A DNA stretch of 64,000 nt from NCBI GenBank assembly GCA_021791195.1, contig JAJYXB010000022.1, forward strand, positions 4,063-68,062, in the 5' to 3' direction. The stretch comes from Actinomycetes bacterium. Lineage in GTDB: Bacteria > Actinomycetota > Thermoleophilia > BMS3ABIN01. The translations under genes were made by a program, and so were the position numbers. Shown here piece after piece: positions 34,939 to 41,750 of this stretch (position 1 is its first letter; each line of letters opens with the position of its first letter). The notes beneath the pieces were generated by a model. That model ran no database searches. It saw only the letters and a program-made list of their open reading frames with translations, and was not told the origin of the DNA.

Positions 34939-35817
34939 ATGGATCATGACAGTGGGAGGAGAGCTTTGGAGATCAACGGAGAAACCAGGCTGATCGGGAT
35001 TTTAGGCGACCCGGTGTCGCATTCGCTGTCGCCCAGGATGCAGAACGCCGCTTTCGACGCCATGGGCCTCAACATCACCTATGTGCCGCTGCCGGTGGCG
35101 CCGGCTCAGCTGGAGGCCGCCGTCGCGGGCCTGCGGGCGATGCGGTTCATCGGCGCCAATGTGACCATCCCCCATAAGGTGCCCGTGTCCGGGCTGTTGG
35201 ACCGGCTCGACGTCTCCGCGAGGCGCGCTGCGGCGGTCAACACGATCGTCAATGACGATGGTGTCCTTACCGGGCACAATACCGACGGAGCCGGATTTAT
35301 CCGTGCCCTCACCGAAACAGCCGTGGTCGATTTCCGTCAGGCTGCCACTGTCATCTTCGGCGCCGGCGGCGCCGCGCGCTCAGTTGCCATGGCCCTTGCG
35401 GGAGCCGGCGTTCCCGAAATCGCGCTGGTTAACCGGACGCTGGCAAAGGCGGACGAGTTGAAGGCGCTGATAGAGGCGGAATTCCCCGCAGTGACCGTGG
35501 TCGCTTCGGTGCCGGATGCCGCGGCCGCGCGCCTGCTTTCCGCCAGTAAAATAGTGATCAATGCCACTTCTCTCGGTATGGTCGGCGACCTAAAGAGTGT
35601 CCCCTTCGACGTCGATAAATTATCGGAAGGGCATGTCGTCTGCGACCTGGTCTACACAAGATCAACGGCAACTCCTCTGTCGGTCGCGGCGAAAAAAAAG
35701 GGGGCGACCTTTATGGGCGGTCTGCAAATGCTTCTGATGCAAGGAGCTGCATCCACCCAGATATGGACCGGCAAGGAACCCCCCATTGATGTAATGAGGA
35801 AGGCACTTGAACCCTAG
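34939..35817 (+). CDS. aroE: shikimate dehydrogenase
   Basis: GILGDPVSHSLSPRMQNAAF, NVTIPHK, NTDG and GAGGAAR. An alternative TTG start at 34966 follows GGGAGGAG. Confidence 0.92.
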   Translation: MDHDSGRRALEINGETRLIGILGDPVSHSLSPRMQNAAFDAMGLNITYVPLPVAPAQLEAAVAGLRAMRFIGANVTIPHKVPVSGLLDRLDVSARRAAAVNTIVNDDGVLTGHNTDGAGFIRALTETAVVDFRQAATVIFGAGGAARSVAMALAGAGVPEIALVNRTLAKADELKALIEAEFPAVTVVASVPDAAAARLLSASKIVINATSLGMVGDLKSVPFDVDKLSEGHVVCDLVYTRSTATPLSVAAKKKGATFMGGLQMLLMQGAASTQIWTGKEPPIDVMRKALEP

Positions 35818-37519
35818 CGAACTCTCAGCCCGCAAGACGCGGAAGCTTCAACCTATCGGCGAGATCCTGGTAGGCAAGGGGCTGATCACCCGCGATCAGC
35901 TGAACGCGGTTCTGGAGAAGCAGAAGGATACGCCCAAGCGGCTGGGCGAGATCCTGGTCGAAGACGGCATCCTGTCGCAGGACCAGCTTAACCATGCACT
36001 GGCGGAGCGCCTGGGCGTCGAGCACATCGGGCTGACCGAGCATGATGTCGACTCGCTGGCCGCCAACATGATCCCCGAGAAGCTTGCCCGGCGCTACGGC
36101 GCCATACCTGTCAGGTTCCTGGACGAGAATACGCTGCTGATGGCGATGGTCGATCCGACCAACGTATTCGCCATCGACGATCTGCGGATGATGACCGGCT
36201 ACGACATCAAGCCGGCTATCGCTTCCGCAGAGGACGTGTTCGGCCAGATCTCGAAGATTCACCGGCTGGGCGACTCGGTCGACGAGGAAGTCAGCGCCGA
36301 AGAAGAGGAGCTTATCGCCGACACGCCCGTGTCGGCTGACATCCGCGAGGCGGCGTCCGAGGCTCCGATCGTCAAACTGGTCAACAGCATCATCAGCCAG
36401 GGCGTCGATGACGGCGCCAGCGACCTTCATTTCGAGCCCCAGGAAAAGGAACTTGTCATCCGCTTCCGGATCGATGGCGTTCTGCACGAGATCATGTCCA
36501 TCCCCAAGCGCATGCAGTCAGGGGTGCTCTCGCGCATCAAGGTGATGTCGGATCTGGATATCGCCGAACGGCGCATCCCTCAGGATGGCCGCATCGGCCT
36601 CACCGTCGGCGGCAAGCCCATCGATGTGCGCGTCGCTTCGATGCCTACCGTTTACGGCGAGAAGATTGTCATGCGCCTGCTGGACAAGAGCAGCGTGATG
36701 CTCAACCTGACCGACCTCGGCTTTTCCCAGAAGGCGTTGAGCCGCTACGAGACAGCTTTTCGCAAACCTTACGGAGCCCTGCTGGTGACCGGACCGACCG
36801 GCAGCGGCAAATCCACAACGCTTTACGCGACGCTCAACGTGCTTAATTCCAGGGAGAAGAACATCATCACCGTCGAGGATCCGGTGGAATACCGGCTGGG
36901 AGGCATCAACCAGACCCAGATCAACACCAAGGCCGGGCTGACGTTCGCCTCAGGCCTGAGGGCGATCCTCAGGTCCGACCCCGATATCGTCATGGTCGGC
37001 GAGGTCCGCGACAAGGAGACGGCGCAGATCGCCATCGAATCGGCGCTTACCGGCCACCTGGTCCTGAGCACGCTCCATACCAACGATGCTCCCGGAGCGC
37101 TGAGCCGGCTCTCCGAGATGGGGATCGAACCCTTCCTGACGGCTTCGGCGATCGAGTGCGTGCTGGCGCAGAGGCTGGCGCGAAAGCTCTGTACTCACTG
37201 CAAGGAGCCCTTCCAGCCTTCCGATGAGGCGCTCCGGCAGGGCGGGTTTCCCCAGGAAGTGATGGGACGCGGCATCACTCTTTACCGGGCCAAAGGCTGT
37301 CCGCGCTGCAACAATACCGGTTACAAGGGTCGTCTTGGCATCTATGAAGTCATGCTGGTCAGCGAAGCCATCGAGCGCCTTACGGTTGAGCGCAAAAGTG
37401 CCGATGAGATTTCAAGAGTGGCTCAGGCTGAAGGCATGGTCACACTCAAAGAGGACGGGATACAAAAAGTCCTCAAGGGAGAGACTTCGGTGGAAGAGAT
37501 CGCCAGGGTCATTGTCTAG
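35807..37519 (+). CDS. pilB: type IV pilus assembly ATPase PilB (GspE family) with MshEN-type N-terminus
   Basis: T2SSE N-domain, Walker A GPTGSGKSTTLYA and the tetracysteine CTHC...CPRC. It overlaps the aroE end by 11 nt. Confidence 0.93.
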   Translation: MNPSELSARKTRKLQPIGEILVGKGLITRDQLNAVLEKQKDTPKRLGEILVEDGILSQDQLNHALAERLGVEHIGLTEHDVDSLAANMIPEKLARRYGAIPVRFLDENTLLMAMVDPTNVFAIDDLRMMTGYDIKPAIASAEDVFGQISKIHRLGDSVDEEVSAEEEELIADTPVSADIREAASEAPIVKLVNSIISQGVDDGASDLHFEPQEKELVIRFRIDGVLHEIMSIPKRMQSGVLSRIKVMSDLDIAERRIPQDGRIGLTVGGKPIDVRVASMPTVYGEKIVMRLLDKSSVMLNLTDLGFSQKALSRYETAFRKPYGALLVTGPTGSGKSTTLYATLNVLNSREKNIITVEDPVEYRLGGINQTQINTKAGLTFASGLRAILRSDPDIVMVGEVRDKETAQIAIESALTGHLVLSTLHTNDAPGALSRLSEMGIEPFLTASAIECVLAQRLARKLCTHCKEPFQPSDEALRQGGFPQEVMGRGITLYRAKGCPRCNNTGYKGRLGIYEVMLVSEAIERLTVERKSADEISRVAQAEGMVTLKEDGIQKVLKGETSVEEIARVIV

Positions 37520-37558: not shown

Positions 37559-38623
<1,065 letters not shown>

Positions 38624-38650: not shown

Positions 38651-39868
38651 ATGTCAACTTTTGTCTACAAGGTCAGAGACATGCATGGGGTCTCCTCCAG
38701 GGGCGAACTGGAGGCGAACTCGCGCGCCGAAGTGGCCAGCAACCTGCGCAACCGGGGGCTGACTGTCGTTGAGGTCAGCGAGAAGAAAGCGGGTATGTCG
38801 CTCAGCCAGATGATGAGCGACATGCAGCGGATCAAGTCGAAGCACATCACCGTATTCTCCCGCCAGTTCGCCACGATGATCAGTTCGGGCCTGGCGCTGC
38901 TCAGGGCTCTCTACGTGCTTGAGAACCAGACCGAGAACCAGAAGCTCAAAACCGTCATCGGCGCCCTGCGCGCGGACGTGGAAGCAGGTCAGGCGCTGTC
39001 TGATTCGATGGAGAAGCACCCGCGGGTGTTCAACCGCCTTTACGTGAGCATGGTCAGAGCTGGAGAGGCTGGTGGTATCCTGGATGAAACCCTAAACCGG
39101 GTGGCTTCGCAGCTGGAATCCGAGGACAGCCTCCGGCGCCAGGTGCGTTCGGCGATGGTCTACCCGCTCCTGATCGCCTCGTTTGCAATTGTCATCATGA
39201 CCGCCATGATCATCTTCATCATCCCTGTTTTCTCCGGCATCTACGCCAGCATGGGCGGCCAGCTGCCGATGCTGACACAGGTGATGGTAGGCATCAGCAA
39301 CACCCTGACCAGTATCTATGGCGTCTTTGTGGTAGCCGCCATCGTCGGCTCGATCTACGGACTGATGAGGCTGAAGCGGACGCCGCAGGGAAGCGCCGCC
39401 TGGGACCGCATCAAGCTGCGGATCCCGATGGGCATCGGTCAGATCATCCGCAAGCTGGCGATGGCCAGGTTCTCCCGTACGCTGTCTACGCTCATCTCCA
39501 GCGGCGTGCCGATCCTGCACGCGATCGAGATCACCGGCGATACCGCCGGCAACGTTGTGGTGGCAGAGGCAATGGCCAGCGTCAGGGCCGGCATCAAGGA
39601 AGGCCGGCCGATGTCGGAACCGCTGTCACATGCCGACATCTTCCCGCCGATGGTGACGCAGATGATCGCCGTGGGTGAGGAAACCGGCGCCGTGGACACG
39701 ATGCTGTCAAAGATCGCCGATTTCTATGAGGACGAGGTCGATGCCGCGATCAAATCGCTGACTTCGATCCTGGAACCGATCATGATGATGGGTGTCGGCG
39801 CCCTGGTCGGTGTCATCGTCATCTCGCTCTATCTGCCGATATTCAACCTGATGAATCAGGTGCATTGA
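38651..39868 (+). CDS. pilC: type IV pilus platform protein PilC (GspF family)
   Basis: Two T2SSF repeats, three TM segments, 405 aa. Confidence 0.92.
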   Translation: MSTFVYKVRDMHGVSSRGELEANSRAEVASNLRNRGLTVVEVSEKKAGMSLSQMMSDMQRIKSKHITVFSRQFATMISSGLALLRALYVLENQTENQKLKTVIGALRADVEAGQALSDSMEKHPRVFNRLYVSMVRAGEAGGILDETLNRVASQLESEDSLRRQVRSAMVYPLLIASFAIVIMTAMIIFIIPVFSGIYASMGGQLPMLTQVMVGISNTLTSIYGVFVVAAIVGSIYGLMRLKRTPQGSAAWDRIKLRIPMGIGQIIRKLAMARFSRTLSTLISSGVPILHAIEITGDTAGNVVVAEAMASVRAGIKEGRPMSEPLSHADIFPPMVTQMIAVGEETGAVDTMLSKIADFYEDEVDAAIKSLTSILEPIMMMGVGALVGVIVISLYLPIFNLMNQVH

Positions 39869-39949: not shown

Positions 39950-40798
39950 GTGAGTGTGGCTGCAAAGAAAAAAGAATGTGCCGCTGCCGGGGATGAGCAC
40001 GGCGCCGTCCATGGTGGCGCCGAGGTCGTCGAGTTTCCCCGCGCCGGCGGCGTGGAGCGGCGTAACAAGGAAATGGTTGCCGCTTACCAGGAAAGCCGGG
40101 ATCCGGCGCTGCTGAGTGCGATCGTCGAGCGCAACCAGGGCCTGCTGCACGCGGTGCTGAAGCGTTTCACCTACTTCCCTGATCCCTATGAGGATCTTCT
40201 CCAGGTTGCCAACCTGGGATTGATCAAGGCGGTGCAGCGGTTTGACTGCGGCCGCGGCATCGAGTTCTCCAGTTACGCGACGGCGATTGTCGATGGCGAG
40301 GTGCGGCATCACCTGCGCGATAACATGCTGATGCGCCAGCCGCGCTGGCTGAAGAAACTCGAGAAGCTGATCGAGGAAGCTTCCGTGGAGCTCAACAGGA
40401 CTTTGAAGCGGCCGCCCTCGGTGGCTGAGATCGCCGAGAAGACCAACGTCTCCGAGGAAGGCGTCCTCGAAGTGCTGAAAGCCCATTCGGCTGTGAGTCT
40501 GCACCAGGTCGATGATCCTCCCGGCCGGGAGGCGGCCGGGGCGCAGCCCGATTCCAGCCGCATCCGCTCGCTGCATTACGAGTCCTTCTCGCTGCCGGTC
40601 GAAGATCGCATTCTCCTGGAAGAGGCGCTCGACGCGCTCAGCATCTTCCAGCGCAAGATTGTATACCTGCTGTTCTTTCGCGATCTGACCCAGTCGGAAG
40701 TGGCGGATGAGATGGGTCTGTCGCAGCGCAAGGTCTCGCGCGAATCCGCCAAGGCGCTGAGCCGGATGAAGGCGATCCTGAACACGAAGATTTTTTAA
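39950..40798 (+). CDS. RNA polymerase sigma factor, SigB/SigF/SigG-like (group 3)
   Basis: Region 2 DLLQVANLGLIKAVQRFD...FSSYATAIVDGEVRHHLRD, and region 4.2 LTQSEVADEMGLSQRKVSR. The start is either the listed GTG at 39950 or the ATG at 40073. Confidence 0.88.
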   Translation: MSVAAKKKECAAAGDEHGAVHGGAEVVEFPRAGGVERRNKEMVAAYQESRDPALLSAIVERNQGLLHAVLKRFTYFPDPYEDLLQVANLGLIKAVQRFDCGRGIEFSSYATAIVDGEVRHHLRDNMLMRQPRWLKKLEKLIEEASVELNRTLKRPPSVAEIAEKTNVSEEGVLEVLKAHSAVSLHQVDDPPGREAAGAQPDSSRIRSLHYESFSLPVEDRILLEEALDALSIFQRKIVYLLFFRDLTQSEVADEMGLSQRKVSRESAKALSRMKAILNTKIF

Positions 40799-40904
40799 GG
40801 TCAACGCTCAAGTTTACAACTGCTTCTGCCGAAGAATGGCACGGACTGAACCTCATCCTGCAGCAGGTAGTGTCTAAAAAAAAGGCAGTTGGGTAGCATA
40901 GGGA

Positions 40905-41006
40905 TGAAGGTGAAAAGGGCAAACCACTCGCGAGGGTGGGACGCAAAGCCTCAGGACCGGACTGCTTGTATTTGGTAATAATGTCTGGTTGGCTGGGCTG
41001 CCACCA
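40905..41006 (+). promoter_or_regulatory. c-di-GMP-I (GEMM-I) riboswitch aptamer
   Basis: GGGCAAACC (40917-40925), a CCACUC-GCGA-GGGUGG hairpin with a GNRA loop, GACGCAAAGCC (40940-40950), and a second helix GACCGGAC/GUCUGGUU. This is near-identical to the conserved core of the V. cholerae Vc2 aptamer as I remember it. Confidence 0.72.
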
Positions 41007-41023
41007 GAGATTCTGAAGTGACA

Positions 41024-41062
41024 GGGATCTGTGGTTTGCCAAAGACCGCAGGTCCCTTTTTT
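41024..41062 (+). terminator. intrinsic terminator (riboswitch expression platform) in the pilin leader
   Basis: GGGATCTGTGGT-TTGCCAAAG-ACCGCAGGTCCC (12 bp, two G.U pairs) followed by T6. It lies 40 nt upstream of the pilin ATG. Confidence 0.7.
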
Positions 41063-41101
41063 ACTGCGGTAAAAAGTGTAATAGGGGAGGAGGTGACATC
41101 C

Positions 41102-41500
41102 ATGATAAACAGGATCAGAAAAAGGACGCAGGTGGGTGGTGGTGAAGGTGGTTTCACGCTGATTGAACTGTTGGTGGTGATTATCATCATCGGCATCCTG
41201 GCGGCAATCGCGATTCCGATGTATCTCAGTCAGCGTCAGAAGGGCTGGAACGCTGCCTCTCAGAGTGACCTGCGCAACGCAGCCGTGGCCCAGGAGAGCT
41301 ACTATACGTCGGCGGGTTCTTATACGAGCAACGTGGGCGACCTGAAGAGCAACGGTTACAACGAGTCGCCTGCCGTAGTCCTGACGGCGACCGGTGATGC
41401 CAACAGCTACTGCATGTCTGCTCATGATACCAGCGGCGGCGACACGTGGTATCTGACCAATACAAATGGCGGCGGCGCACCGACGACAGCTCCATGCTAG
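41102..41500 (+). CDS. pilA: major type IV pilin (prepilin with class III signal peptide)
   Basis: MINRIRKRTQVGGGEGG|FTLIELLVVIIIIGILAAIAIP, with Glu5 and two C-terminal Cys. The ATG at 41102 follows a GGGGAGGAGG RBS; the listed start at 41018 runs through the terminator. Confidence 0.92.
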   Translation: MINRIRKRTQVGGGEGGFTLIELLVVIIIIGILAAIAIPMYLSQRQKGWNAASQSDLRNAAVAQESYYTSAGSYTSNVGDLKSNGYNESPAVVLTATGDANSYCMSAHDTSGGDTWYLTNTNGGGAPTTAPC

Positions 41501-41523
41501 CACCGACGACAGCTCCATGCTAG
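41478..41523 (+). repeat. perfect 23-bp tandem duplication spanning the pilin stop codon
   Basis: CACCGACGACAGCTCCATGCTAG occurs at 41478-41500 and again at 41501-41523. Confidence 0.95.
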
Positions 41524-41568: not shown

Positions 41569-41604
41569 AGGAAACGGCGGACCTCAGGTCCGCCGTTTCC
41601 TTTG
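41569..41604 (+). terminator. rho-independent terminator of the pilin gene
   Basis: AGGAAACGGCGGACC-TCA-GGTCCGCCGTTTCCT (15-bp stem) followed by TTG. Confidence 0.8.
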
Positions 41605-41750
41605 CCTCAAACCTTTCAAATACACCAAAAAAACCTAACTTTTTTTGTCGGTTTTTCCGATAAGAAGTTAGTAATTCGAAGCTGCGGGATAGTGGCTGGT
41701 TTTTTGCGGCTGCCGCCGGCAACGCGGCGCCTGCGGCTGCGGAGGTTCGA

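Follow-up and report, generated by a model that had tools for sequence, protein, structure and literature searches.

Riboswitches built on class I aptamers for cyclic di-GMP (c-di-GMP) and the control of type IV pili by c-di-GMP are both already well established, and type IV pilus genes under a riboswitch are known as well, namely pilA1 of Clostridioides difficile and pilM of Geobacter. Here we describe the leader of a type IV pilin gene from an Actinomycetes bacterium, contained in a stretch of 64,000 nt of contig JAJYXB010000022.1 (the window), in which a c-di-GMP-I (GEMM-I) aptamer at 40909-41006 is followed by an intrinsic terminator at 41023-41062. The elements of this leader and the pilin gene behind it all lie on the + strand. 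The leader opens no new category of regulator, but adds a clean case that is conserved among uncultured, Thermoleophilia-like Actinomycetota. Its expression platform is readable, in that the site where the terminator would nucleate is predicted to be clamped by two segments of the aptamer, which leads to a clear OFF prediction.

Several described systems resemble this leader in part. Cd1, the flgB leader of C. difficile (PMC9262584), likewise joins a class I aptamer to a separate intrinsic terminator that is compatible with the bound aptamer, its ligand-free antiterminator unfolds part of the binding pocket, and its target belongs to surface appendages and motility. Cd1 sits in a flagellar operon of the Firmicutes, whereas the target here is a type IV pilin of Actinomycetota, and Cd1 is experimentally validated while our leader is known from its sequence and predicted folds. 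A further difference from Cd1 is that two aptamer segments clamp the terminator arm here and that an extra conserved hairpin, termed R3:R4, is present. The Vc2 aptamer of Vibrio cholerae (PDB 3IRW) shares the core blocks GGCAAACC and GGGACGCAAAGCC, the GNRA-capped P1a helix, the positions G20, A47 and C92 and the pairs G21-C46 and C22-G45. It differs from our leader, in which P1 has only 4 bp, P1b is of another sequence and length, and a terminator platform is attached. The pilM leader of Geobacter metallireducens (GEMM-Ib) is of the GEMM-I fold family, is also terminator-based and also precedes a type IV pilus gene. However, it responds to cyclic GMP-AMP (cGAMP), works as an ON switch whose aptamer and terminator folds exclude each other, targets pilM and not a pilin, and is deltaproteobacterial. 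A riboswitch in a type IV pilin leader of a Gram-positive bacterium is provided by C. difficile pilA1, which, according to Bordeleau et al. 2015 as cited in PMC6916266, is controlled by a c-di-GMP-II aptamer of unrelated fold and is switched ON, in contrast to the class I aptamer and predicted OFF switch here. Lastly, in Rubrobacter, another early-branching actinobacterium, the pil cluster is transcribed from WhiG-type promoters, and WhiG is sequestered by RsiG in complex with c-di-GMP (PMC8325347). The resemblance lies in the WhiG-type motifs within the pil cluster and in the direction of control, high c-di-GMP turning pili off as in the polarity predicted below, although the (RsiG)2-(c-di-GMP)2-WhiG complex is a protein anti-sigma switch that acts at initiation. 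Within the literature searched, it is the only route by which c-di-GMP is known to control pili in early-branching actinobacteria.

We give a probability of roughly 0.85 to the reading that the pilin leader carries a class I (G20/A47/C92) c-di-GMP riboswitch acting through a rho-independent terminator by the OFF mechanism proposed below. It builds on the identity of the aptamer, the conservation of its structure, the terminator, the complementarities between the two and the gene context. The firmest part of this reading, and a very likely one, is that the pilin gene is controlled at the level of transcription by a c-di-GMP-I riboswitch, while the OFF polarity taken by itself is probable.

The aptamer and the terminator

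The whole window was scanned with cmscan against Rfam 15 at gathering thresholds. A single match was returned, at 40909-41006, to the c-di-GMP-I clan CL00126 with 59.9 bits (E = 1.3e-11) and the full model covered, and rescanning 311 nt reproduced the match to this clan. In the Rfam register, P1 is formed by four pairs between GGUG (40909-12) and CACC (41002-05), two core G-C pairs (40919-20 with 40943-44) are the equivalents of G21-C46 and C22-G45, P1a spans 40924-39 with the GNRA loop GCGA at 40930-33, and P1b spans 40947-40999. The fold of 40900-41070 is more stable than that of dinucleotide-shuffled sequences (z = -3.3), none of which folds as well. The aptamer ends at 41005 in this register and the terminator begins at 41023, so that the two do not overlap and their folds are able to coexist.

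The terminator consists of a 15-bp stem (41023-37 with 41043-57, 7 G-C pairs) closed by the 5-nt loop GCCAA and followed by U6 at 41057-62, which ends 40 nt before the pilin ATG in both the terminator scan and the minimum free energy (MFE) fold. The whole unit is placed in a gap of 303 nt between the stop codon of a sigma factor gene (40798) and the start of the pilin gene (41102).

A search of species-representative genomes with the sigma protein gave 12 orthologous loci, 10 of them reaching far enough downstream. These loci are from metagenome-assembled genomes labelled Thermoleophilia, Gaiellales, Actinomycetota or Actinomycetes, and their sigma proteins are 57-69% identical to that of the window. 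A scan of metagenomes contributed four more distinct leaders. In the resulting alignment of 15 leaders (the window and 14 orthologous loci), with the fold tested in the Rfam register, pairing across aptamer and terminator amounts to 98.9%, and compensatory changes occur at eight pairs: two in P1a, three in P1b and three in the terminator, the helix of which is 98.4% paired by itself. Not one of 500 shuffles reaches any of the observed measures, and controls in which the fold was slid along the alignment are 29-45% paired. No change at all occurs in P1 or in the two core G-C pairs. The P1a loop, which in the class I fold is a GNRA tetraloop that docks into P1b, has a GNRA sequence in all 15 leaders (GCGA, GCAA, GUAA or GUGA), and alignment columns 47 and 93, which run through the series C-G, U-A and U-G, favour the Rfam register of P1b over that of RNAfold. 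At the level of sequence, the equivalent of C44 (C40942), which in Vc2 takes part in the interhelical C44-G83 pair, and the bulged GG at 40991-92 are invariant as well.

A preliminary description of the window, made from its letters, had proposed a class I aptamer here from the blocks GGGCAAACC and GGGACGCAAAGCC, the GCGA-capped hairpin between them and a second helix, GACCGGAC/GUCUGGUU. All of these are present where it placed them, the second helix being part of P1b, and the likeness to Vc2 that it noted for the core blocks and the GNRA hairpin is borne out by the match of GGCAAACC and GGGACGCAAAGCC. The clan match above its gathering score, the three-helix fold with compensatory changes and the canonical ligand contacts discussed below uphold the class I assignment, and the orthologous leaders, in which it asked for a test of covariation, show compensatory changes. 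Its estimate of about 300 nt between the sigma and pilin genes, its terminator with U6 40 nt before the ATG (now a 15-bp stem seen in the terminator scan, the MFE fold and the covariation) and its mention of a class II riboswitch on C. difficile pilA1, which agrees with PMC6916266, stand likewise.

Predicted clamping of the terminator by aptamer strands

The 5' arm and loop of the terminator read AGGGAUCU-GUGG-UUUGCC, and two upstream strands are complementary to them. The first, ACCAGAGAUUC at 41003-41013, is composed of the 3' strand of P1 and the linker, and its partner is 41025-41035, where GGAUCU.UGGU complements ACCA.AGAUUC. This pairing appears in the nascent-transcript MFE fold of most of the 15 leaders and is 96% paired across them, and the linker is conserved while the next 12 nt are hypervariable. 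The second strand, the aptamer core GGCAAACCAC at 40918-40927, is the perfect reverse complement of GUGGUUUGCC at 41031-41040. Most orthologues use only GGCAA/UUGCC of this complementarity, as a closing helix, with 93% of the alignment cells paired. UUUGCC is kept in 14 of the 15 leaders although it lies within the apical loop or upper stem of the terminator, where its 3' partner varies freely, which argues for a second partner.

We then folded each transcript as it would stand just after synthesis of UUUGCC and before that of the terminator's 3' arm. The terminator 5' arm is sequestered in the MFE fold of this nascent RNA in 15 of 15 leaders, in three variations. Ten leaders (L003-L009 and L021-L023) form the GGCAA/UUGCC closing helix around P1a, P1b and the hairpin between tail and 5' arm; the window, L001, L002 and L010 form the full 10-bp GGCAAACCAC/GUGGUUUGCC helix; and L019, in which the segment reads UUUGAC, forms the tail/5'-arm hairpin without the closing helix. 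The preliminary description had suggested that CCAC(C)AGA and UCUGUGG could pair and that a ligand-dependent choice between terminator and antiterminator was plausible. This pairing exists in a slightly different register as part of the larger antiterminator, and the predicted sequestration of the 5' arm by aptamer strands is consistent with such a choice. The antiterminated fold is 4-12 kcal/mol below the best fold in which the aptamer is constrained to form. With the aptamer so constrained, the linker AGAGAUUCU is still able to pair with AGGGAUCU, which forms the arm's base, yet GUGGUUUGCC is free; since this segment is loop-proximal, the ligand-sensitive element would be the nucleation site of the terminator.

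A further predicted hairpin is R3:R4 (41045-41070), in which ACCGCAG (41045-51), from the upper part of the terminator's 3' arm, pairs with CUGCGGU (41064-70), directly behind the U-tract, so that the U-tract is looped out between them. All 15 leaders are predicted to form it, at -12 to -23 kcal/mol and with three compensatory pairs; the R4 segment is CUGCGGU in the window and GUGG(Y)YUGG in most other leaders. With the aptamer strands and the 5' arm, R3:R4 makes up a four-segment chain of alternative pairings. It is transcribed too late to influence termination, and may instead keep transcripts that have read through in their antiterminated form or add to the stability of the mRNA. Neither R3:R4 nor the state of the terminator brings a consistent change in the predicted accessibility of the Shine-Dalgarno sequence among the 15 leaders.

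Proposed polarity of the switch

These pairings suggest the following mechanism. Transcription would start from one or both of the promoter-like elements described below, the proximal of which would let the transcript begin just ahead of P1, by a few nt. Without ligand, GUGG-UUUGCC (41031-41040), the loop-proximal half of the terminator 5' arm, would be held by the C92/P1 3' strand with the linker (41003-41013) and by the GGCAAA core (40918-40923), the terminator would fail to nucleate, and RNA polymerase would read into the pilin gene. Binding of c-di-GMP would lock P1, C92 and the G21-C46 and C22-G45 pairs in the aptamer and release GUGGUUUGCC, upon which the 15-bp terminator could form and transcription would halt at U6. 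The net outcome of such a mechanism would be that high c-di-GMP turns pilin synthesis OFF.

Landgraf et al. distinguished the coexistence of aptamer and terminator against an antiterminator in Cd1, an OFF switch, from the mutually exclusive folds of pilM, an ON switch (PMC9262584). At the level of sequence and predicted fold, our leader has the features of the Cd1 type, with an aptamer and a terminator that can coexist and an antiterminator drawn from aptamer strands. OFF is thus the most likely polarity, because the architecture is that of Cd1 and because the 5' arm is predicted to be sequestered by strands of the aptamer. Vc2 is reported to bind c-di-GMP with picomolar to nanomolar dissociation constants, and ligand binding together with tertiary contacts could pay for the gap of 4-12 kcal/mol.

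Several observations weigh against this mechanism or its sign. The antiterminator helices, at 93-96% paired, show one-sided (G-U) changes and no compensatory double change, which can be attributed to the invariance of their aptamer partners. The register of the tail/5'-arm pairing is ambiguous, in that L010 fits CCAC(C)GGA/UCCGUGG better and L023 the other register, and UUUGAC in L019 (1281-1286), which could reflect either natural variation or a misassembly, breaks one GGC/GCC pair of the GGCAA/UUGCC helix. Nearest-neighbour MFE folding disregards tertiary structure and kinetics. In addition, an OFF switch fits awkwardly with c-di-GMP favouring piliation, as the MshEN motifs of PilB and the ON switch of C. 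difficile pilA1 would have it.

The last point leads to the alternative that best survives, in which the same aptamer and terminator make an ON switch and c-di-GMP prevents termination, as in C. difficile pilA1 or Geobacter pilM. The MshEN motifs would suit c-di-GMP-promoted piliation, and the persistence of the AGAGAUUCU/AGGGAUCU pairing in the aptamer-constrained fold could point to a partial antiterminator compatible with the bound aptamer. However, that linker hairpin is weak, leaves GUGGUUU free and would be displaced by the 15-bp stem. The overlap between terminator and aptamer that defines the pilM design is absent here, so that ligand binding cannot sequester a terminator strand, and the segments complementary to the nucleation site are inside the aptamer, where the ligand would release rather than engage them. 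We consider an ON switch improbable on these grounds and retain the OFF mechanism.

Ligand specificity

The ligand of the aptamer requires separate consideration, as the best-scoring Rfam model is not RF01051, with which the preliminary description had proposed that the aptamer be checked. While the expected clan match above the gathering score was obtained, its top model is RF03167 (c-di-GMP-I-GGC), whose gathering score of 59 bits is exceeded by the 59.9 bits of the window. RF01051 has a gathering score of 35 bits, and clan competition prints only the best member. One further clan match at or above its own gathering score overlaps in the window without its score being printed, and such hidden matches equal the loci headed by RF03167 in number in both scans of leaders (6 of 10 and 4 of 5), which identifies them as RF01051 at 35 bits or more. 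By this reasoning the RF01051 score of the window would fall between 35 and 59.9 bits, the value itself being unprinted.

The same holds across the lineage. The 15 leaders and a strain variant of the window's leader (L029) score 58.9-64 bits to one or the other model. RF03167 is the top model of the window and of 10 among the 15 scanned relatives (the 14 orthologous loci and L029). These ten (L003, L005, L006, L008-L010, L019, L021, L022 and L029) score 59.8-64 bits and surpass the cut-off of 59 by 0.8-5 bits, whereas RF01051 is best in 5 of the 16 leaders at 58.9-64 bits against a cut-off of 35.

The positions that contact c-di-GMP in Vc2 are G20, A47 and C92 (PMC4744006). From the Rfam alignment and that of the 15 leaders, their equivalents are G40918, A40945 and C41001, and all three are invariant in 15 of 15 leaders. 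We take "GGC" to stand for the signature G20/G47/C92, in which G replaces A at the intercalating position 47, and this agrees with the printed RF03167 consensus ACGC-G-AAgCc. The window has ACGC-A-AAGCC, which is scored as a mismatch, and every leader has A at position 47, within ACGCAAAGCC or GCGCAAAGC, so that the G47 which would define GGC is not present. Apart from this substitution, the periphery is similar to that of RF03167 in its A-rich J1 segment, its short P1b and the sequence GCUGCC. We know of no established ligand for the GGC variant, and the GGC and UAU variants are not described in the "224 RNAs" paper (NAR 2017).

That the leader belongs to a specificity variant which senses another ligand, either as a GGC-class RNA or as a GEMM-Ib RNA for 3',3'-cGAMP, is in our view very unlikely. 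Such a variant would account for RF03167 being the best model in the window and most relatives, just over its gathering score, but A47 contradicts its consensus in all 15 leaders, and part of the lineage scores best with RF01051, far above the cut-off of that model. As for GEMM-Ib, the cGAMP-selective RNAs reportedly have A at position 20 (findings associated with Kellenberger and with Nelson, both 2015), and position 20 is G in 15 of 15 leaders. Both variant identities were accordingly set aside. Because the three contact positions are the canonical G, A and C, the leader is by its sequence an ordinary class I aptamer and would be expected to bind c-di-GMP, and the RF03167 label would be a threshold artefact. 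This is a pitfall for annotation, since the Rfam thresholds would file the whole lineage under the GGC specificity variant despite its canonical A47.

Conservation and promoter-like elements

The aptamer, the terminator, the ribosome binding site GGAGGUGA and the pilin are kept at every locus that extends far enough. At two loci, L001 and L002, a reverse-strand gene of 404 aa stands between the sigma gene and the leader, and the unit of promoter, aptamer and terminator remains with the pilin, which identifies it as the leader of the pilin rather than the tail of the sigma gene. By eye, the product of this inserted gene (3863-5077 in L001, with an equivalent in L002) reads as membrane-embedded at its N-terminus and as a trypsin-like serine protease at its C-terminus. 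In the strain variant L029, the spacer of 303 nt differs by 12 substitutions. Ten of them precede P1 and two fall in the P1b apical loop, while the aptamer core, the tail, the terminator and the ribosome binding site are unchanged. This pattern shows purifying selection on the stretch from aptamer to ribosome binding site.

Two promoter-like elements precede the aptamer. The distal one, TCAA-N16-GCCGAAGA at 40808-40835, is of the sigma-28/WhiG type with a predicted transcription start site at about 40842. It matches the published WhiG query T(A/C)AA-N16-GCCGA (PMC12871210) exactly, and a regular expression search found no other + strand match to this query in the 64 kb. In 12 of the 15 leaders a motif of this type lies some 110 nt ahead of the aptamer core, in a thirteenth, L008, this distance is about 137 nt, and only one match to the WhiG-like motif was found on the minus strand across the 15 loci. 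The proximal element, GTGTCT-N15-GGGTAG at 40870-40896, is of the SigB/SigF type, and its predicted start site (about 40903-40906) is 3-6 nt before P1. All 15 leaders keep both boxes and the distance between them with little or no change, and L029 alters the spacer only. It may be compared with the SigB-family consensus GTTTAA-N12-14-GGG(A/T)A(A/T) and with the Streptomyces examples GTGxxx-N14-GGGTAG (PMC8346170). Both elements are putative promoters, proposed from sequence resemblance.

The block upstream of P1, GGCAGUUGGG, was also considered as an RNA anti-aptamer of AGCUGCC, to which it is complementary. Its changes in L001, L002 and L005 are uncompensated, and the promoter reading was retained for this reason. 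Further WhiG-like motifs occur on the + strand at 37380-37407, within the 3' end of pilB and about 150 nt before pilT, where nearly all loci have one, and at 41636-41663 (TAAC-N16-TCCGATAA), ahead of the minor pilins of the window.

The idea that the hairpin and U6 are the terminator of the sigma gene or a constitutive attenuator, with the aptamer acting on translation or mRNA stability or being vestigial, has hardly any probability left: the stem-loop is indeed self-sufficient and forms in the full-length MFE fold irrespective of the aptamer, but the unit accompanies the pilin and not the sigma gene in L001 and L002, two promoter-like elements separate the sigma stop from the aptamer, segments of the aptamer have conserved complements in the loop and 5' arm of the terminator, no consistent structure sequestering the Shine-Dalgarno sequence is predicted, and L029 points to purifying selection from the aptamer to the ribosome binding site.

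Possible c-di-GMP signalling around the pilin leader

The N-terminus of PilB (35807-36010) matches NCBIfam NF053729 with 67.8 bits against a cut-off of 38 and carries tandem 24-residue MshEN c-di-GMP motifs separated by a 5-residue spacer, PIGEILVGKGLITRDQLNAVLEKQ-KDTPK-RLGEILVEDGILSQDQLNHALAER, as defined for this motif (PMC5013675). It is thus probable, judging from these motifs, that c-di-GMP also acts on the assembly ATPase PilB. In V. cholerae MshE, binding of c-di-GMP supports pilus extension. Since PilB carries MshEN motifs, an OFF switch in the pilin leader would not by itself fix the sign of the overall effect of c-di-GMP on piliation.

The sigma factor encoded in the cluster is nearest to the SigB/F/G family in NCBIfam (175.9 bits, under the curated cut-off of 234), and with 85.6 bits to FliA/WhiG it was ruled out as WhiG itself. 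From this resemblance it might drive the SigB-type pilin promoter. No whiG or rsiG gene is present in the window. The RsiG motif E-x3-S-x2-R-x3-Q-x3-D has no strict match in the six frames of the window and one loose match, in an antisense open reading frame (ORF). By regular expression, no GGDEF motif occurs in the window's ORFs of at least 120 aa, and the matches to EAL, HD-GYP and PilZ patterns are too loose to read. The word riboswitch has no occurrence in the Rubrobacter paper (PMC8325347) or in its 2026 follow-up (PMC12871210).

The WhiG-type motif and the riboswitch on one leader suggest a layered (feed-forward) c-di-GMP circuit that can be tested. A wider and speculative scheme, which we regard as doubtful, is that the pilin mRNA integrates c-di-GMP at two or three levels: initiation at the WhiG-type promoter, elongation at the OFF riboswitch and perhaps assembly through MshEN-PilB, with the SigB/F promoter, possibly served by the cluster's own sigma factor, starting at the aptamer and R3:R4 completing a four-segment platform. 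Were this scheme true, the expression platform would be of a kind not described for GEMM-I, and the leader would be, within the literature searched, the first c-di-GMP riboswitch tied to the actinobacterial circuit of c-di-GMP and type IV pili.

The pilus gene cluster

The leader lies within a type IV pilus cluster in the order pilB (35807-37519), pilT (37559-38623), pilC (38651-39868), the sigma-70-family gene (39950-40798), the leader and the pilin, followed by six prepilin-like or associated ORFs up to 47615. The cluster is flanked by aroE at one side and by unrelated genes at the other. The window's sigma protein was found on 15 public metagenome contigs, which shows the organism to be uncultured.

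The pilin gene (41102-41500) encodes 132 aa and is preceded by the ribosome binding site GGAGGUGA at 41089-41096. Its product has the prepilin leader MINRIRKRTQVGGGEGG, which is followed by the cleavage site and FTLIELLVV. It matches Pfam N_methyl (28.9 bits) and TIGR02532 (31 bits), both above their cut-offs, as well as Pfam ComP_DUS and NCBIfam IV_pilin_GFxxxE. The processing site, GG followed by cleavage and FTLIELLVVIIIIGILAAIAIP, belongs to a class III signal peptide, in which G-1, F+1 and E+5 are present and alpha1-N is hydrophobic, and this type of signal peptide and the location in a pilBTC cluster are those of a type IV pilin. The same coding sequence is present in independent gene calls of public contigs. 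The preliminary description had called this gene the major type IV pilin. That it is a type IV pilin holds in view of the N_methyl motif, the G|FTLIELLVV site, the length of 132 aa and the pil cluster, whereas "major" is suggested by the position of the gene, its own promoters, its strong ribosome binding site and its own terminator.

A very stable predicted hairpin of 15 bp followed by UUUGCC lies at 41569-41601 (+ strand), 70 nt past the pilin stop (-32.8 kcal/mol, z = -5.9). It is likely to mark where a monocistronic pilin transcript ends, which would make the pilin a short unit apart from the minor pilins. Two perfect tandem copies of the 23-bp sequence GCACCGACGACAGCTCCATGCTA span the pilin stop codon at 41477-41523. 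The strain variant L029 has one copy of this repeat, indicating that the duplication is polymorphic in the population, and the pilin protein is unaltered by it because the stop codon already falls within the first copy.

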